Source: an uncultured Lewinella sp. (lineage in GTDB: Bacteria > Bacteroidota > Bacteroidia > Chitinophagales > Saprospiraceae). From it: 64,000 nt of DNA. The stretch's first letter is position 1. The number at the start of each line of letters is the position of its first letter. The notes under the pieces are model-generated. The model was not told where the DNA came from. It saw nothing but the letters and a program-made list of their open reading frames with translations, and did not search any database. The stretch spans positions 4,904 to 68,903 of the forward strand of contig CAJXPD010000008.1 of assembly GCA_913057785.1 (NCBI GenBank), in the 5' to 3' direction. Made by a program: the position numbers and the translations under genes. Of the stretch, positions 2,125 to 10,189 are shown one piece after another.

Positions 2125-5019
2125 ATGAACAGGCACCTGATACTCCGCGATCATGGCCTGGCGGCTACTGTTATAGCAGACACTTCCCTCGAACAGCCCC
2201 AGGTATCAATCATTCACAATGATGATTACACGAAGGCCTTTCCCGTGATTGGAGACATTGCATTCTTTAATGAGTCTGATTTTTATTCTGAAAAGATCCT
2301 GCAGGATAGATGTGAGCAATTGCTAAAAAGCACGGTAGAGACGGTCGATGCCTACGAGCAGTTTGTAAGGCAAAAAGGACGTCGCCCTAATTACGATATA
2401 TATGCTTGTTTCCAACCTTTTAACGAGGCATTCAAAGCACTTTATCCATTTCTTCCGAGCCTAAAGAAACGTCTGAAACCTGGTGATTTACTACTCAATC
2501 TTTGGGATCGAACCGGTTGGAATGCGGCCCTATTGGCCGGTCTTTTCCCCGAGCAAAAAGTGATTTCAATTTGGGAGGGTGATAAAGATGTGCTAGGCTA
2601 TAAGGGGTTTTATTTCTGGTATCAGAATCAGGAAGAAGGGCAAGGCTTTCAAGTTGCCTTTGCTAATTTGGAAAAACCACTTCCCTTTGCGGACAACTCT
2701 GTGGCGCTTGTGGTGGGCTTAGATACCTTCCATCGCTTCGACCAATCCTTGATGTTGAGCGAGATGTTGAGAATAACCACAGATGATGCTGCCATTGTAT
2801 TTCCGCACGTGCACCTTTCCAATAATGAACCCGATCCCTTCTTTGAGCGAGGATGTCGACAATTGCATGGCACGGATTATGACCGCTTCTTTCAGCGAAT
2901 GCTTAGCAAGACCGAAAGGGTGGGAATGGTTTTCCCAGAGCCTGAGATGTTTGCCTTGAATGAGCTATCAGAGAGCGGGCTTGCGCCACTGCAGTCACAA
3001 CCCGATTCTCATCACTATAACTCTTGTATTGCTATTCTGCCAAAGTACTGGGTACAAGAAGAACAGCTGCAAGCCTTCCGTTTTAAAGATCTTGGATCGA
3101 TCGATGATTGTCACATCTTGATTAATCCGCTCCTAGATATCAGCCTACATCAGGCGGTCGTTCGCCTCAATCGTGGCTATCTTTCAGATCGGGTGGGATA
3201 CCTTTTAGATCGCCATCCCATCTACATGGAAAAACTAAGAAAAGCAGCTGATTATAAATTGTCTGAGCTAGAATGCAAATTGTTGTTTTGGGCAGGGCAG
3301 TTGCTTTCGGTAGCTGAAATTGCAGATAAGACGGGTTACGCGGTGGAGGATCTAGCCGCCGCCTTGGAGGAGTTGCAGACTAGAGACATTCTGCAGGTTG
3401 TACCTGTCTCCAAACAGAGTATTCGTCTGCAGGCATTTGTAAGTACCCAGACTTATGTGGTCCCTAAAAATGAGCAGACCATCAATGCGCTTTGGGAGCG
3501 TGCTGTCCGAAATTATTCGGAAGAACTGTTTTTGATTTCTGAAATGGATGAGAGTGAGTTTACTTATGAAGATAGCAATCAATTGATCAAACAAATCCAG
3601 GCGCGCTTGTTGAAGGCAGGACTGCAGAAAGGGGATAAGTTAGCCATTGTAAGCCCTAATCATTTTGAAGGGGTCCTGAGTCTACTGGCAGCTACGCAAT
3701 TGGGTTTGGTAGTGGTACCCATAGAATATGACCTTCCTGAGAGCTCAATACGATATATTTTAGACCAAGTTCAGCCTAAACTAACCTTCCTCAGCCCTAC
3801 CAATTTTGAGCGCTTATCGTCCCTCCTAAGTGCTGAACATACCATTGTATTTGACGAGGAAGAAGAAACAGAAGGCACGCTGTTTTCGGATTGGCTCATG
3901 GATATTGAGGAGGAGGTTGAAGCACCGAGTGCAGCAGTACATGAAAGAGATCTTGCTGTGATCTTGTACACCTCTGGTTCTACAGGCTTGCCGAAAGGGG
4001 TTCAGCTATCCCATGGACATCTGATGCGTAGTGCCAGATTGATTAGCGAGACCTACCAATGGCGCAAGACGGATCGGTTCTTGGCCTTGGGTGAACTAGA
4101 TAGCATGAGTGGTTTGCGAAATTGCTGTTTTGCACCATTGGAAGTAGGTGCCGCAGTAGTTATTCCCGACGCCCGAAATAAAGGCAATCTTTTCGGTATT
4201 TGTGAAGCGATCGGCAACTTTGAAACTACACTTTTGGGCACTACTCCAGCCTTCTTAAATCAAGCTGTCAAATTTGAACGGAGGGTTAAAGCAGATCTAA
4301 GAAGTTTAAGACAAGTAATCTGTACGGGAAGTAATCTGTACCCCGCCTTGCGGAAATCATTCCTCGAAATTTTCAGTATCCCGATCCTTAATTATTACGG
4401 TTTGACCGAAACCACGGGCATTTGCACTGCAGAAACGGAAGAGAATCATCAACTTGATCAACACACTATCGGCATACCTGTGGCTTGCATCGCTCAAATC
4501 CTCACGGACGAAGGTAAATTGGCTAAGCCTGGCGAAAAAGGGGAACTCCGTATTTACAGTGAAAATATAATGATGGGCTATTACGCCAACCCAAAACTTA
4601 CGGCCCAAGTGGTGAGAGATGGCTGGTTCTATACAGGGGACTATGCCAGTTTTACGGAAGAGGGACACATTGAGCTGATGGGGCGTAAACGCGATATCAT
4701 CAAGACCGCCGACGGGAACCTAGTATTCGCTTCAGAAATTGAAGATTGCCTACAAGAGCAAACAGACCTCATCAAAGAAGCGGCTGTCACTGCCATCCAC
4801 GAAGACGGAATGGAAAAGATCATTGCTTTCATCGTGCCTGAATCCACGGAAGCTGATTTGCGGGAGCTGGAAAAGAGCTTGAAAGCACATGTTATCAATC
4901 GACTAGGGAAAAGGAAGGCACCGCTGCGTTTTGTTCCTATTTCCGATATCCCGATTTCTGCGAATGGTAAGGTCCTAAAAGCACAACTTATTGAACAATA
5001 TCTTCAAGAATCCCTATAA
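2125..5019 (+). CDS. fusion protein: N-terminal methyltransferase-like plus winged-helix-like region, C-terminal adenylate-forming (AMP-binding) enzyme
   Basis: 964 aa. The C-terminal half has ANL-superfamily core motifs: YTSGSTGLPKG, YYGLTETTG, WFYTGD..GRKRDIIK, ANGKV. The N-terminal ~480 aa has a Rossmann-like stretch (LLLNLWDRTGW..VISIWEGD) with a degenerate SAM motif. Confidence 0.8.
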   Translation: MNRHLILRDHGLAATVIADTSLEQPQVSIIHNDDYTKAFPVIGDIAFFNESDFYSEKILQDRCEQLLKSTVETVDAYEQFVRQKGRRPNYDIYACFQPFNEAFKALYPFLPSLKKRLKPGDLLLNLWDRTGWNAALLAGLFPEQKVISIWEGDKDVLGYKGFYFWYQNQEEGQGFQVAFANLEKPLPFADNSVALVVGLDTFHRFDQSLMLSEMLRITTDDAAIVFPHVHLSNNEPDPFFERGCRQLHGTDYDRFFQRMLSKTERVGMVFPEPEMFALNELSESGLAPLQSQPDSHHYNSCIAILPKYWVQEEQLQAFRFKDLGSIDDCHILINPLLDISLHQAVVRLNRGYLSDRVGYLLDRHPIYMEKLRKAADYKLSELECKLLFWAGQLLSVAEIADKTGYAVEDLAAALEELQTRDILQVVPVSKQSIRLQAFVSTQTYVVPKNEQTINALWERAVRNYSEELFLISEMDESEFTYEDSNQLIKQIQARLLKAGLQKGDKLAIVSPNHFEGVLSLLAATQLGLVVVPIEYDLPESSIRYILDQVQPKLTFLSPTNFERLSSLLSAEHTIVFDEEEETEGTLFSDWLMDIEEEVEAPSAAVHERDLAVILYTSGSTGLPKGVQLSHGHLMRSARLISETYQWRKTDRFLALGELDSMSGLRNCCFAPLEVGAAVVIPDARNKGNLFGICEAIGNFETTLLGTTPAFLNQAVKFERRVKADLRSLRQVICTGSNLYPALRKSFLEIFSIPILNYYGLTETTGICTAETEENHQLDQHTIGIPVACIAQILTDEGKLAKPGEKGELRIYSENIMMGYYANPKLTAQVVRDGWFYTGDYASFTEEGHIELMGRKRDIIKTADGNLVFASEIEDCLQEQTDLIKEAAVTAIHEDGMEKIIAFIVPESTEADLRELEKSLKAHVINRLGKRKAPLRFVPISDIPISANGKVLKAQLIEQYLQESL

Positions 5020-5031
5020 GCTAGACGCAAA

Positions 5032-6864
5032 ATGACAGACACCGTTGCAATTTTCAAAAGACTAGAAGACAAAAAAATACAATCGAAGCTATTCGCCCAG
5101 CTCGATAAGAAATATACTTATGCTGATCTCCACACCGGATTAGCTAAAATGACGACCTACTTCCAACAAAAAGGCCTAAGCCAGGGAGATCGTTTAATCA
5201 TTTCCTCTAGAGATAATTATGCCGTTAGCATCCTTTTTCTTTCTTGTTTGAAAAATGGCATCACCGCGATGATGTTGGACCCCGATATGGGGACGATCCG
5301 AGCGAACGAATTGATCAAGCTAACAGAGCCTAAGGGCTTGTTGGTAGATCATGAGCTTACTGCAGCCTGGTCTCTTGCAGATAAGACTGAGTTTATCTTG
5401 CCGATCAAGAAGGAAAAACAAAAGAAAGGATTGCTGTTCAAGAAGATGCTTAAGAGCAAGAGCAATGGAGCGCAAAAGGCGACGACCTTTCCGGCTATTC
5501 TCAATCAACTAGAGGAAGGAGATGGACCGAGTCAGATAGATCCAGAGAGCACTGCTTACATCCTGTTTACCTCTGGCTCTACCTCCACACCCAAGGCTGT
5601 GCAGATCAGTCATCGGGCTTTGTGGGCCAATTTGAATACGATAGTGAAAGTGTATAATATCGAGGAAGGGGATAGAGTATTCAATATCCTAACAGCCTAT
5701 CATACAGATGGTATTATTCAAGGCCCTGTGCTGGCTGTCCTAAACACACATAGCTGGTATCATCCTTTTGAATTTGCGATCGACAAGATCGAAGCGATTT
5801 TCGACAGCATCTATAAATATCGGATTACCCATTTCATTACTGTTCCAACCATGCTGGCTTTCCTCAATAAATTCTCGGATGGATTTGAGGATACCTTTGA
5901 CAATGCCGATTTTAAGAGCATAATCACCTCCGCCTCTCCCTTGGAAGTTGAATTATGGAAGACCTTTGAACAGAAGTTCAATACCCGGATCGTCAATAAC
6001 TACGGCTTGACGGAAACAGTGGTAGGGGCCAGTTATTGCGGACCAAGCCCGTCCACACATCGCATCGGATCAGTGGGCGTGCCAGTGGATTGTGAATTCA
6101 AAATCATCAACGAGACGGGAGAGACCTTAGGAGATAATGAACAAGGTGAATTACTCATTAAAGGAGATAACTTGCTGACGAATTACCTGAATAATGAAGA
6201 AGCGACAGCGGCCGCCATACAAGATGGTTGGTTTCATACAGGTGATTTTGCCAAACGTGATGAGGATGGCTTCTACTACATCGTCGGACGCAAGAAAAAC
6301 CTGATCATTTCGGGAGGAATCAATATACAACCGGAAGAAGTAACCGCGGTATTAAATAGCCACCCAGCGGTACTAGAATCAGCATCCTTAGGTTTACCAG
6401 ATGATATTTTTGGGGAGAAACTAGTAGCAGCTGTTGTACTCAATACAGGTACTTCGGTCGATGAATTGGCCTTGGTTGAGCACTGCCGAACAGAGTTAGA
6501 GGAGGCTAAGGTGCCAAAGAAGATTCATTTTGTGAGTGCTATACCCAAGACAGGCTCTGGAAAGATCAAATATCAGGAGGTGACGGAACTGCTGAAGGCC
6601 GATAAAGAACTGGTACTAAGCAATGGTGATCACGGTTATACCGAGGGCATCCTCGCCGCTGCGGCAGATGCGTTCAAAATAGATGCTTCTAAATTAGATA
6701 TGAAGGGGGATTCCTTGAGTATCGATGGCTGGGATTCCATGGCCCATTTGGTCTTTATTACGAATCTAGAAGATCAATTTAAAGTGCGCTTTAATTCCAA
6801 GGAGATCATGGTGATGAATACCTTGGCAGAGGCTGAGCAGATTCTCGCTGCAAAACTGAACTAG
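5032..6864 (+). CDS. adenylating enzyme fused to a C-terminal acyl/peptidyl carrier domain (A-T didomain, DltA+DltC-like)
   Basis: 610 aa. Motifs FTSGSTSTPKA, NNYGLTETV, WFHTGD..GRKKNLIISGG, GSGKI. The C-terminal ~80 aa has a carrier-protein signature, IDGWDSMAHL (Ser569, codon 6736-6738). Confidence 0.85.
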   Translation: MTDTVAIFKRLEDKKIQSKLFAQLDKKYTYADLHTGLAKMTTYFQQKGLSQGDRLIISSRDNYAVSILFLSCLKNGITAMMLDPDMGTIRANELIKLTEPKGLLVDHELTAAWSLADKTEFILPIKKEKQKKGLLFKKMLKSKSNGAQKATTFPAILNQLEEGDGPSQIDPESTAYILFTSGSTSTPKAVQISHRALWANLNTIVKVYNIEEGDRVFNILTAYHTDGIIQGPVLAVLNTHSWYHPFEFAIDKIEAIFDSIYKYRITHFITVPTMLAFLNKFSDGFEDTFDNADFKSIITSASPLEVELWKTFEQKFNTRIVNNYGLTETVVGASYCGPSPSTHRIGSVGVPVDCEFKIINETGETLGDNEQGELLIKGDNLLTNYLNNEEATAAAIQDGWFHTGDFAKRDEDGFYYIVGRKKNLIISGGINIQPEEVTAVLNSHPAVLESASLGLPDDIFGEKLVAAVVLNTGTSVDELALVEHCRTELEEAKVPKKIHFVSAIPKTGSGKIKYQEVTELLKADKELVLSNGDHGYTEGILAAAADAFKIDASKLDMKGDSLSIDGWDSMAHLVFITNLEDQFKVRFNSKEIMVMNTLAEAEQILAAKLN

Positions 6865-6866
6865 GA

Positions 6867-7745
6867 ATGAAGCACAGATTTCCTCCTTTGTGGGTGTGGG
6901 CTTGTACCATGGGCTTTGTGATGCTAACAGTCTTTGTCATAGGTAGTTCTGGAATCATTGATATACGCCATGGCTTTGGAACCAATTATGGGAGCTTCAG
7001 AAGCCGTCTAGCGCATTTGAAATCCACTGCCGAAATCAACGAAGGCGATAAGGTGGTTGTGGTGATTGGTTCTTCTTTCACGGCCATGGCTGTGGATCAT
7101 CGGCCTTTCTTCTATGATAAGTACCAACAGAGTCATGGGGGTAACCTACATGTGTTCAAGCTATACATGTATGGTTGCAATGCTGAAGTTTTCCAGAGAC
7201 TTCCGGAATTCTTCGAAATGGCTGCATCCTTGCAGCCGGACATCGTCTGTGTGGAGGAACACCTATTGGCCATTAATGAAAATCCAGATACAGATGGCAT
7301 GAGCATACCGAGCTGGATAAGTGACTTCAATTTAGGCGTAAACGCCATAAGAAGTTACTTTCTTCCAGAGTCGGATAGTACAGAATGGCATGATGTACCC
7401 ACCTTTGAGTTCTTCTGGAAATACCATGATACTACTTATCACGCGGATTCGTTGGAGGTCGGTCAAAAACCGAATTACCAGGTAAGAAACTATGCCAGCA
7501 ATCGCCGATTAAATAAGTGGCTCAAGACATATGTGCCTGACAACACACATATAGTATGCATCAGTATACCCAGAGCTCCACATGCCGAAGAAAAGTTGGC
7601 CAAACTTAGAGGTCAGGAAGACTACTTGAGCTTGAGGGATAAATACGAGGAACAACATGAGGTAGACTTTTGGATATTCCCAGATACCCTGCCCTATATC
7701 ATGTATTCGGGAGATGATCATTTGAATATGACGGGGATGCGTTGA
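6867..7745 (+). CDS. membrane-anchored SGNH-like acyltransferase/esterase (DltD/AlgJ-like)
   Basis: 292 aa with an N-terminal TM anchor. VVVIGSSFT (candidate nucleophile Ser block) and GDDHLNMTG near the C-terminus (a DxxH-type block as in DltD/AlgJ/AlgX). Starts 2 nt after the carrier gene. Confidence 0.55.
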   Translation: MKHRFPPLWVWACTMGFVMLTVFVIGSSGIIDIRHGFGTNYGSFRSRLAHLKSTAEINEGDKVVVVIGSSFTAMAVDHRPFFYDKYQQSHGGNLHVFKLYMYGCNAEVFQRLPEFFEMAASLQPDIVCVEEHLLAINENPDTDGMSIPSWISDFNLGVNAIRSYFLPESDSTEWHDVPTFEFFWKYHDTTYHADSLEVGQKPNYQVRNYASNRRLNKWLKTYVPDNTHIVCISIPRAPHAEEKLAKLRGQEDYLSLRDKYEEQHEVDFWIFPDTLPYIMYSGDDHLNMTGMR

Positions 7746-7792
7746 TACTCAAATTGGTTGAGCGAGCAAATTGAAAAGCAACTTCACCCCTG

Positions 7793-8923
7793 ATGGATAT
7801 TCTAAACCTCATATTGGCATTCTTGGCTGTTCTGGTACCGATTTGCTGGTTGGTGCCCAGCAAATGGCAGGTCTGGGCTATTGTCGTAGGGACTTTGGCG
7901 TTTCTGTTGTGGCAGTCTCCGATTTCCGTTGCCATTCTTGCATTTACCACCGTAAGTAGTTATGGAATTTTCCAATCGGGTCTGAATAGGGCGTGGGCCA
8001 CGATAATGATTCTGTTGCAATCCATAGGACTATTTGTTCTGTACAAAGCAAACTGGGCTCCCGATGTATTGCAAGATGGTAATCGATTGATACCCTTAGG
8101 CTTATCGTACTATTCCTTTCGACAGATTCACTATGCTATCGAGCAATACAAGGAGAAAGTTCCAATACATAGTTTTGGGGAGTACGTGTGCTATATGTTC
8201 TTTTTACCGACCATCTTAGTGGGGCCTATCAATCGTTTTCCCACCTTCATGCGCCATCTGCGACGGCGACGGTGGGATGAACAGATGTTTGCGGATGGCT
8301 TAGAACGGATATTATATGGCTATGCGAAGATTGTGATCTTGGGTAATTTTTTGGTGTCACGGATCATAGCAGAGGCGATTGAAGACATTGATCATCAGTA
8401 TATCTGGCTGAAGACCTATTTGGAGTCCATCAATTTCTTGCTTAATACCTACTTCCAGTTCGCTGGCTTTTCCGATGTAGCTATTGGTCTAGCACTCCTC
8501 TGTGGCTTTAGAGTGATGGAAAATTTCAACTACCCACTCAGCGCACCGAATATCAATGAATTCTGGAATCGCTGGCATATTTCGCTATCGTCTTGGTGCA
8601 AAGACTACGTCTACATACCCGTTGCCAGCATCACTCGGCAGCCCATTTGGGGGATCATTTTTACGATGTTGGTTATCGGACTCTGGCATGAATTGTCCAT
8701 GAAATATATTATCTGGGGATTGTTTCATGGCATAGGTATTGCCATTTGGCATCTCTATAAGAATAGTGGAATAGCAAATCGCCTGACGAAAAATTTGCCT
8801 TATTACGAATTCTGGGCAAAAGTGCTGACTTTCCACTTTGTGGTTTTGAGTTTCGTTATCGTAATGGAACCTGATTGGATTTCTGTTTGGGAGCGATATA
8901 AGATTTTACTGTTTTTTAACTAG
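7793..8923 (+). CDS. membrane-bound O-acyltransferase (MBOAT), DltB/AlgI-like
   Basis: 376 aa, polytopic. Signature FWNRWHISLSSWCKDYVYIP with the conserved MBOAT histidine (H262, codon 8576-8578). Confidence 0.85.
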   Translation: MDILNLILAFLAVLVPICWLVPSKWQVWAIVVGTLAFLLWQSPISVAILAFTTVSSYGIFQSGLNRAWATIMILLQSIGLFVLYKANWAPDVLQDGNRLIPLGLSYYSFRQIHYAIEQYKEKVPIHSFGEYVCYMFFLPTILVGPINRFPTFMRHLRRRRWDEQMFADGLERILYGYAKIVILGNFLVSRIIAEAIEDIDHQYIWLKTYLESINFLLNTYFQFAGFSDVAIGLALLCGFRVMENFNYPLSAPNINEFWNRWHISLSSWCKDYVYIPVASITRQPIWGIIFTMLVIGLWHELSMKYIIWGLFHGIGIAIWHLYKNSGIANRLTKNLPYYEFWAKVLTFHFVVLSFVIVMEPDWISVWERYKILLFFN

Positions 8924-8928
8924 AAAGT

Positions 8929-9066
8929 ATGTACGAATTTCTGCTCAAATATCTATCGGTTCGCTGGGCCAATGTGGGAATTATACTTTGGTATACTTTT
9001 TTAGTGCTATTGATCCTGTATATGATGCAGGTGGAAGAGGCCAATTTTCGATATATCGATTACTAG
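8929..9066 (+). CDS. 45-aa single-pass micro-protein, DltX-like candidate
   Basis: Not in the ORF track (<60 aa). ATG 8929, TAG 9064-9066, 5 nt after the MBOAT stop. My translation is MYEFLLKYLSVRWANVGIILWYTFLVLLILYMMQVEEANFRYIDY: one TM helix, then the C-terminal motif F-R-Y-I-D-Y. Confidence 0.4.
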   Translation: MYEFLLKYLSVRWANVGIILWYTFLVLLILYMMQVEEANFRYIDY

Positions 9067-9075
9067 TTCAGCGCT

Positions 9076-9834
9076 CTATTCCCAAATGGTACTCAAGTAG
9101 GCCAATTCTTTCCCATCTTCTTCCTTGACCAGCCTATGCTGAAAGTGTCCAGCTTCCTTTTCAAAGCATTGAGAAACGACCCGATCTTCCAGTAAAGCTT
9201 CAGCTTGGTATTGCACTTGCATATCCACCAATTGTTTATGCTCTAGCACGCGCTGGGGTAGACTTTCGAGCATCCATTGGATGTAATAGGTATTGTTTAG
9301 ATGTCTGTTAAAATCCAGGTCATGCCAATTTACACGGAAAGATTTTTCCCAATGAACCTCGTCCATTTCCTTGTCCATTTTGGTATTGACTCTCGGCAAG
9401 TAAGTTTCGGGAGCAGGTAGGCGCTCTTCCAATTTCAGTATAAAGGCGGGAATTCGGGTTAAGCGTCGCGTTTTCGTATTCATCAATAGCCAGGCGGTAC
9501 TCGAAGAAGCAATTTGCTCACCAGATTCATCGAAAATGCGGAAGTCTCGGTAGGTGTATACGCGTTCAAAACCAGAGGGGTGAGTTCTCACTCGAATCTT
9601 TTCTCCCAATCTAGGCAATCGTACGACCTCCATATGATTCCGCATCAATATCCAGGAGATATCATGTGGCTCCAAATCCCAGACCGAAATGCCCAACTTG
9701 ATGACTTGTTCCATTGCTGCCTCCTGCATCAGGCGGACTAGGGCTGGAAGTGTAGCCACCTTTCGACTATCGATATCATAGGTGCGGATCTGAAATTCGG
9801 CCTCGTGTACAATGGGTTTCAGTGGGCTGGTCAT
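9076..9834 (-). CDS. acyl-ACP thioesterase
   Basis: Double hot-dog FatA/FatB-like sequence (IRTYDID.., WHDLDFNRHLNNTYYIQW). The track start 9903 is GTG; I trimmed to ATG at 9834 (MTSPLKPIVHEAEF). Confidence 0.8.
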   Translation of the reverse strand: MTSPLKPIVHEAEFQIRTYDIDSRKVATLPALVRLMQEAAMEQVIKLGISVWDLEPHDISWILMRNHMEVVRLPRLGEKIRVRTHPSGFERVYTYRDFRIFDESGEQIASSSTAWLLMNTKTRRLTRIPAFILKLEERLPAPETYLPRVNTKMDKEMDEVHWEKSFRVNWHDLDFNRHLNNTYYIQWMLESLPQRVLEHKQLVDMQVQYQAEALLEDRVVSQCFEKEAGHFQHRLVKEEDGKELAYLSTIWE

Positions 9835-10189
9835 AATGCAGTGATTCTTTGGCCCAAAAGAAACTAATTTTAAGGGGATAAGCAAATTCACCTTGCTCGC
9901 CACATAGGTTCCGAGTTAGGAAAGGAAGTATATCTGGCAGAAGTGGCCTTCTAAGCCCATCCTTAGGACGATACACCGCTTGAGGCAGAAAGCAGCGATA
10001 AGCCTTCATCTTGACTTAGCTGCCCCTGTTTCCTTATATACTTTGGCGATAAACTTAAGCACAACTGATCAAATTGGTGATTTTGCTGCTGATCCATATA
10101 AAATTCTATTGCCTAAGCGGGGGTAAGGACGCCAACAAAATCATTGAAAAGCGAGTAGCCGTTTATCCACCAATAATTTTAATTCTGGC

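Follow-up and report, generated by a model that had tools for sequence, protein, structure and literature searches.

A conserved 45-residue membrane microprotein beside a DltB-like MBOAT in a Lewinella genome: a candidate tyrosine acyl shuttle outside the Dlt pathway

Does a 45-codon open reading frame lying directly behind an MBOAT gene encode a protein, and could that protein carry acyl groups on a tyrosine near its end, as DltX does? The question arises from a 64,000-nucleotide stretch of DNA of an uncultured Lewinella sp., referred to here as the window. The tyrosine acyl-shuttle mechanism has been worked out only in 2023-2025. In the Dlt pathway, the invariant tyrosine of DltX takes D-alanine from DltC via DltB and hands it to a serine of DltD (PMC12148441; PMC13653941), and the 'acyl shuttle' motif has been published as FXYXXF (PMC12148441). 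A first-pass annotation of the window had described DltX as a peptide of about 40-50 residues with a tyrosine acyl acceptor and a terminal FIYNEF motif, and this description was accurate: the annotated DltX proteins of a Bacillus thuringiensis plasmid and of a Listeria monocytogenes record are both 48 aa long and end in FIYNEF.

The reading frame begins at ATG 8929, 5 nt past the TAG of the MBOAT gene at 7793-8923, and ends at TAG 9064-9066. Its coordinates and its translation, MYEFLLKYLSVRWANVGIILWYTFLVLLILYMMQVEEANFRYIDY, came out exactly as first annotated, as did the description of one transmembrane (TM) helix followed by the tail FRYIDY at the very C-terminus. The best 19-residue hydrophobic window covers residues 15-33 (mean Kyte-Doolittle 2.07), with a net charge of +1 on the N side of the helix and -2 on the C side. 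The features are:

8929..9066, forward strand: gene for a 45-aa single-pass microprotein, a candidate DltX analogue (sequence, in-frame conservation, synteny, purifying selection, 208-cluster family)
Residues 1-14 of the product: predicted cytoplasmic N-terminal tail; about 15-33: TM helix; 34-39: linker; 40-45: hexapeptide FRYIDY
9046..9063, forward strand: C-terminal hexapeptide F40-R41-Y42-I43-D44-Y45 (family tail conservation; FxYxxF and FIYNEF of DltX)
9052-9054, forward strand: Y42, the predicted acyl-accepting tyrosine (conservation)

The window has 424 open reading frames of 30-80 aa in its six frames; an F.Y..[FYW] ending occurs in this one alone, against 0.06 expected from composition. 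Scans of the window for promoters and terminators gave no excess over shuffle expectation.

Comparative evidence argues for a gene. An MBOAT-seeded scan of species-representative genomes yielded 15 loci, of which the eight closest come from Saprospiraceae metagenome-assembled genomes (MAGs), Flavilitoribacter nigricans, Spirosoma and other Bacteroidota, with 25-89% identity across the cluster proteins. All eight keep the small reading frame in frame and syntenic, always starting with Met-Tyr and 42-45 aa long. The first-pass annotation had staked its reading on such conservation, which is found in every relative that carries the cluster. Among these relatives pS is 0.55-1.0 (saturated) against a pN of 0.08-0.41, and dN/dS, where computable, is 0.03-0.28. 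Judged from this record, the reading frame at 8929-9066 is a real gene under purifying selection. The copy in Flavilitoribacter nigricans is labelled a hypothetical protein by PGAP (NCBI), and most other copies are nameless. Gene order varies: two loci (L004 and L008) have the MBOAT gene, the small gene and then the gene for the roughly 300-aa SGNH-like protein described below, while elsewhere the latter comes first, followed by the MBOAT gene and the small gene. In L004 an insertion of about 2 kb separates the MBOAT and microprotein genes, and the small reading frame is still kept. This insertion (L004 9137-11190) holds two small open reading frames of 113 and 109 aa that by eye look toxin-antitoxin-like, the second resembling an XRE-type HTH protein.

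The microprotein belongs to a large family. When an HMM built from 21 family members was run against 1.84 billion representatives, 208 representative clusters matched at E<=1e-3, 21 of them at E<=1e-10, and almost all were of 45-47 aa; a word-indexed protein search with the single peptide returned 1 relative and an alignment query 20. The loci of family members range from 25 to 70% GC, and the family extends beyond Bacteroidota-like genomes. In 166 small family members the tail is strikingly uniform. Length is exactly 45 aa in 115 of them, and tyrosine stands fourth from the C-terminus (position -4) in 164, both exceptions being one-residue length shifts. Position -6 is Phe in 147/166 and Leu in 14/166, position -5 is Arg in 124/166, and the chain ends in L, W, Y, I or F. 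The pattern F.Y..[FYWLIVM]$ fits 144 of the 166, with the consensus G/A-x-F-R-Y-x-x-hydrophobic. Thus the likeness to the DltX terminus first noted for a single peptide holds across the family, with an aromatic or hydrophobic residue at the end. Both Y42 and Y45 had been put forward for mutation; the family bears out the first, with its tyrosine at -4, and speaks against the second, which falls at a variable hydrophobic position. Since position 45 varies (Y, W, F, L, I), the alignment points to Y42 rather than Y45 as the predicted acyl acceptor. Several N-terminal and TM residues (M1, Y2, L5 and W21) are conserved as strongly as Y42.

The mean net charge in the family is +1.73 on the N flank of the helix and -0.25 on the C flank, which predicts an N-in/C-out orientation, as for DltX. 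The product would accordingly be a real single-pass membrane peptide with a periplasmic C-terminus, this placement being read from the flank charges.

Could the frame instead have arisen by chance, or could it encode some unrelated hydrophobic peptide of small size, for instance a toxin or a leader, with a coincidentally DltX-like tail? Short hydrophobic reading frames are frequent, and homology to DltX is undetectable, both of which fit such an origin. It is contradicted, however, by purifying selection, by 208 clusters with an invariant tail, by linkage to an MBOAT gene at every informative locus and by the mere 0.06 such tails expected window-wide, and we give it next to no credence.

The MBOAT gene itself provides the second line of evidence:

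7793..8923, forward strand: short DltB-like MBOAT, 376 aa (PF03062, E=1.7e-22; likeness to DltB)
8561-8578, forward strand: FWNRWH motif (alignment)
8687-8689, forward strand: catalytic His299 in GLWHE (alignment with DltB and with the WH(G/E) of fused MBOATs)

The neighbour named in the first-pass annotation is therefore an MBOAT by its PF03062 match, and an MBOAT adjoins the small gene in other Bacteroidota too. Its best NCBIfam match is the DltB model TIGR04091 (175 bits, below the cut-off of 375), and its PDB sequence relatives are DltB structures only (6bug, E=8e-28; 8jem, E=1.3e-27). Together, PF03062 and the conserved histidine place it with the MBOATs of the MBOAT-SGNH class. When the window MBOAT was aligned with five relatives, three DltB proteins and five longer MBOATs from the genome scan, the window-type proteins proved to end where DltB ends, to keep the catalytic histidine and to have no C-terminal FxYxxF extension. 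The long MBOATs continue for about 70-90 further residues and end in FIYFQF, FIYAQF, FIYFVF, FIYAAF or FIYFKF; among the related loci, such fused proteins with an FIYxxF end occur in L009-L011 and L013-L015. The motif separates the two kinds of MBOAT: those without it are accompanied by the microprotein, and those that bear it are not. The FxYxx-hydrophobic motif of the window cluster thus lies on the microprotein and is absent from its MBOAT.

In PatA-like bacterial MBOATs, the motif is fused C-terminally on two extra TM helices and its tyrosine is auto-acylated (PMC12148441; PMC13653941); both helices are needed to put the fused motif outside (PMC12148441). It follows that a single-helix version must be a separate N-in/C-out peptide. 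At all 17 informative loci, which range from 25 to 70% GC, the microprotein gene lies downstream of the MBOAT gene; 14 of them have a gap of -1 to +11 nt, the other three gaps of 52, 70 and 2054 nt.

These comparisons also bear on the idea that there is no separate gene and that a frameshift, a recent nonsense mutation or an error in sequencing has detached the small frame from the MBOAT, whose C-terminus it would be. A gap of 5 nt between the MBOAT stop and the ATG, and the occurrence of a fused FIYxxF tail at the end of other bacterial MBOATs, are what such a split would leave behind. Yet the 17 loci, with their gaps of -1 to 2054 nt, repeatedly show the stop, an ATG of the small gene's own and a length of 45 aa; the recurring small genes stand in a different frame or order relative to the MBOAT gene, and those of L004 and L008 have changed place together with the SGNH-like gene. 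Moreover, fused MBOATs need two extra helices (about 70-90 residues) for an outside motif, and a single helix fused to the window MBOAT would leave the motif in the cytoplasm. The comparative data already refute a split-off C-terminus, which we consider exceedingly improbable.

If the microprotein is a free-standing shuttle, the genes upstream should be asked for a donor and for an acceptor. Two adenylases precede the MBOAT:

5032..6864, forward strand: adenylation enzyme with a fused C-terminal carrier (PP-binding-like) domain, 610 aa (AMP-binding, 2e-59; AMP-binding_C, 2.3e-18)
6736-6738, forward strand: predicted phosphopantetheine Ser569 in GWDSMAHL (alignment with DltC)
2125..5019, forward strand: accessory second adenylase, 964 aa, with an uncharacterised N-terminal region of about 450 aa (AMP-binding at residues 458-949)

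The C-terminal 95 or so residues of the 610-aa enzyme match PP-binding at E=0.0011 and 19.6 bits, just under the Pfam cut-off of 20.8. Ser569 aligns with the phosphopantetheine serine of DltC and is kept in four of five orthologues, the fifth (L024) having Leu in its place (GWDLFAHL). An adenylase and a carrier serine, as in a carrier-dependent (Dlt-type) system, are thus both present, with a borderline PP-binding match and one orthologue without the serine. In L024 a different carrier may therefore feed the MBOAT. At the same locus, NRPS-type genes (L024 9332-13465, reverse strand, 68% GC) run convergently to the adenylase, MBOAT and microprotein genes and encode a 311-aa protein with weak GDSL similarity, a free-standing condensation domain and an A-PCP-C NRPS module.

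What the adenylases activate is hinted at only faintly. Both match generic fatty-acid or acyl-CoA ligase models of NCBIfam, far below their cut-offs, and no DltA model appears among the 25 best NCBIfam matches listed for them. A conserved H-(T/A)-D-G in the adenylase aligns its Asp with the Asp of the F-D-L-S in DltA, which we take to bind the amino group of the substrate; this may be a weak hint about the cargo. The 964-aa adenylase has counterparts in L001, L002, L004, L006, L008 and L025, L027 and L028 have a second, shorter adenylase in its place, and L022, L024 and L026 have no counterpart of more than 900 aa. As it is found in some clusters only, it is presumably accessory. Its N-terminal region of about 450 aa (window 2125-3500) gave, as an orthologue profile, a weak winged-helix/MarR-like match (ZitR 5yi0, E=1.4e-3, residues about 363-431) and weak SAM-methyltransferase-like matches (residues about 167-225). 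The region is conserved and has many invariant His, Asp and Glu residues.

Between the adenylase-carrier gene and the MBOAT gene lies a candidate for the acceptor enzyme:

6867..7793, forward strand: membrane-anchored SGNH-like protein, putative DltD/PatB counterpart (alignment, fold models)
6867-7745, forward strand: the same gene as the listed reading frame of 292 aa, which ends at an in-frame TGA (sequence)
7068-7076, forward strand: G68-S69-S70, invariant, at the end of the first strand
7719-7721, forward strand: H285, in an invariant H285-L-N..G before the C-terminal helix

The family has an N-terminal TM anchor at about residues 6-27. The 292-aa protein has no match in Pfam or NCBIfam and no significant PDB sequence match, the best being a 159-aa 'Acetyltransferase' chain (6vjp, E=0.68). 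When its family was compared with DltD by hhalign, using a reference of 3 sequences, the GSS block alone aligned (0.7%). The Asp of the putative triad shifts in position between clades. Two AlphaFold models of the family are of low confidence (pLDDT 55 and 48, pTM 0.55 and 0.52). Foldseek matches of the first were non-significant, with SGNH enzymes prominent; the low-confidence model of a full-length orthologue gave seven matches at E<=1e-3 (best E=1.3e-4, TM-scores 0.31-0.56), and nearly all of its top 30 or so matches are SGNH enzymes. The SGNH matches include the Bacteroides acylhydrolases 4iyj and 4ppy, CE2 esterases, Iah1, TesA, PatB, Ape1 and rhamnogalacturonan acetylesterase. On these models an SGNH fold is probable for the 292-aa family. 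A profile of the family (A3) recovered the orthologues in L025 and L026 and did not recover the 311-aa protein of L024; the latter, beside the module, and the partner of the fused MBOAT in L013 both have weak Lipase_GDSL_2 matches (E~1e-3).

The SGNH-like gene of the window is interrupted by TGA 7743-7745, at a position where all orthologues encode Arg. Read through, the sequence continues ...GMR*YSNWLSEQIEKQLHP to the next stop, TGA 7791-7793, which overlaps the ATG of the MBOAT gene (TGATG); the premature stop removes the last 16 residues, that is, the C-terminal helix. Because the identical 292-aa product (P0021) is found in four member sequences on two contigs, the truncation is probably a real allele and not a one-off error. 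The system may consequently be impaired in the genome of the window.

With a probability of roughly 0.75, we read the microprotein as the subunit that shuttles acyl groups in a Dlt-like MBOAT-SGNH acylation machine dependent on a carrier protein. From the parts described above we infer a route by which the group would travel. The 610-aa enzyme would adenylate a carboxylic or amino acid and load its own fused carrier domain at Ser569. With its His299, the short DltB-like MBOAT would then carry the acyl group across the membrane to Tyr42 in the periplasmic tail FRYIDY, from which it would move to the serine of the membrane-anchored SGNH-like protein (G-S-S). This protein would finally transfer it to a polymer in the periplasm or at the cell surface, probably a polysaccharide. 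The group transferred could be one other than D-alanine. The expectation that a DltX-like peptide would make this cluster mechanistically complete stands in outline, given the adenylase-carrier, the DltB-like MBOAT with its histidine and the SGNH-like protein; a place for the peptide within the DltX family is not supported.

A different role can be envisaged in which the microprotein serves as a structural or assembly tether, or as a stabiliser, of the MBOAT/SGNH complex and forms no covalent acyl intermediate, the MBOAT passing the acyl group straight to the SGNH-like protein or the polymer. Tight genetic linkage alone is no proof of catalysis, the conservation of M1, Y2, L5 and W21 on a par with Y42 suggests helix-helix packing, and DltX itself has been reported to bridge DltD and DltE (PMC13653941). 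However, the sharpest conservation concerns a tyrosine at a fixed distance from the free C-terminus within an F-x-Y-x-x-hydrophobic frame, and a mere tether needs no fixed terminal hexapeptide. In that very frame acyl-tyrosine chemistry has been shown for DltX and PatA (PMC12148441), and MBOATs without a microprotein carry the same frame fused to themselves. We regard a purely structural role as unlikely and retain the acyl-shuttle reading.

The target would most likely be a surface polysaccharide, as suggested by the genomic surroundings of other members. In L025 the module lies among genes for glycosyltransferases, sulfotransferases, a methyltransferase and a Polysacc_synt_2-type protein, and sulfotransferase genes recur beside the module in distant members, which suggests that the modified polymer may be a sulfated polysaccharide. 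These sulfotransferase genes (Sulfotransfer_1/3), next to the MBOAT-microprotein module, are:

L023 168-1058
L025 1-1894, 14568-15557 and 17781-18138
L027 2444-3373

In the window, the cluster is flanked by two unannotatable genes on one side and by the ribosomal operon rpsL-rpsG-fusA-S10 on the other. One further neighbour was considered as a cluster member:

9076-9903, reverse strand: acyl-ACP thioesterase (PF01643/PF20791), converging on the microprotein gene with 9 nt between the stops

It is syntenic in the closest relatives only (L001 and L002) and was rejected as probably lying outside the module.

How much of this is new? Full-text literature searches found no description of the family or of a non-Dlt shuttle microprotein, although a prior mention in the primary 2023 Dlt paper is possible. 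A 2025 paper on PatAB describes the MBOAT pathways other than Dlt as being without such a microprotein (PMC12148441). The mechanism class is known. What is new is that the proposed shuttle stands free in a system other than Dlt, that the carrier is fused to the adenylase, that the SGNH-like partner is divergent and that the setting is Gram-negative. The broader proposition is that the family is a second, independent tyrosine acyl-shuttle microprotein family, serving a widespread carrier-dependent pathway that decorates a Gram-negative surface polysaccharide with a non-acetate acyl or aminoacyl cargo, where widespread means more than 200 clusters at 50% identity and a genome GC of 25-70%. We hold this to be slightly better than an even bet. 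If true, it would overturn the statements that microproteins are used by Dlt alone and that the mechanism belongs to Gram-positive bacteria, and the near-invariant Arg beside the tyrosine may then reflect a new specificity for cargo or partner. The split arrangement recurs in Gram-negative Bacteroidota and in other genomes, where a self-contained adenylase-carrier and a putative, very divergent SGNH-like transferase accompany it. It would offer a way into a modification of the envelope or exopolysaccharide, into the cargo and target of that modification and into its role in charge and in phage or antimicrobial resistance. As family members are either uncalled as genes or labelled hypothetical, a simple annotation rule could serve gene callers that miss 45-codon frames: a product of 45-47 aa encoded after a short MBOAT and ending in F-R-Y-x-x-hydrophobic.

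It remains to place the system among its known counterparts, beginning with DltX. The first-pass annotation had looked to an alignment with DltX, and no homology was detectable: the 21-sequence family profile, aligned by hhalign with a shallow reference of two genuine DltX sequences, gave a probability of 0.9%. The microprotein matches no DltX model in Pfam (E<=10) or NCBIfam (E<=1), the DltX family being, as we take it, Pfam PF12459, and a PDB profile search with it found nothing. With 45 residues and so shallow a DltX profile, these comparisons do not separate very remote homology from convergence. The microprotein is accordingly classed, on sequence grounds, as a DltX analogue, or an undetectably remote relative, in a new family, and not as a member of the DltX family; the word analogue is used because homology is undetectable.

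In form the two are alike. Both are single-pass peptides of about 40-50 aa (45 against 48) with a positive N flank, a short linker (in the microprotein, predicted to be extracytoplasmic) and an extreme C-terminal hexapeptide with tyrosine fourth from the end (FRYIDY and FIYNEF), and the tail after the best hydrophobic window measures 12 residues in the microprotein and 14-16 in DltX. The operons of both also encode a motif-less short MBOAT, an adenylase and a carrier, whether a protein or a domain, together with DltD in the one case and a putative SGNH-type transferase in the other. They differ in that the microprotein has a nearly fixed Arg at -5, where DltX has Ile, and ends in Y, W, L, I or F, not strictly in the Phe of DltX. 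Given these differences, including the frequent final Leu or Ile, the contacts with partner proteins may differ as well.

Gene order sets the systems further apart. Both annotated dltX genes sit first in their operons, upstream of dltA-dltB-dltC-dltD, whereas the microprotein gene follows the MBOAT gene; the window operon has not the dltXABCD order but, as in Saprospiraceae, that of adenylase, adenylase-carrier, SGNH-like protein, MBOAT and microprotein. The hosts are Gram-negative Bacteroidota, which to our knowledge have no teichoic acids. Dlt loci show variation of their own. A true dltA-dltB-dltC-dltD operon in a Eubacteriales MAG (L012) has no recognisable dltX frame with an FxYxxF end in the roughly 300 nt upstream of dltA (2200-2520). 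Orphan dltB genes, without dltA, dltC, dltD or dltX, occur on small plasmids of Ligilactobacillus murinus (pLmYK1; L019 2711-4119) and Enterococcus faecalis (L020 2959-4158), the former directly after a gene for a bacteriocin of the bactofencin A family, which may indicate a role in immunity.

Among the remaining components, the carrier is fused to the adenylase here and free (DltC) in Dlt, and the adenylase is generically ANL/acyl-CoA-ligase-like and not a DltA orthologue. Unlike the DltA-DltC pair, many clusters here have a second adenylase with an uncharacterised N-terminal region. The MBOAT resembles DltB in its best matches and in the position of its C-terminal end, but its score of 175 falls short of the 375 required by the DltB model. 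Like DltD, the SGNH-like protein has an N-terminal anchor, a G-S-S at residues 68-70 (G-S-S-E in DltD, with the same numbers) and a C-terminal D-x-x-H-L...G, but has about 300 aa against about 390-430 and no significant profile match; PatB structures are among its fold matches. With PatA/PatB, AlgI and other bacterial MBOAT-SGNH pairs whose motif is fused to the MBOAT, finally, the proposed machine would share a common logic, in which an MBOAT histidine, the tyrosine of a C-terminal FxYxxF, an SGNH serine and a polymer follow one another. Those systems use acyl-CoA, carry the motif on two extra MBOAT helices and have neither a microprotein nor a carrier protein, whereas here the motif has a peptide to itself and the adenylase brings a carrier domain.
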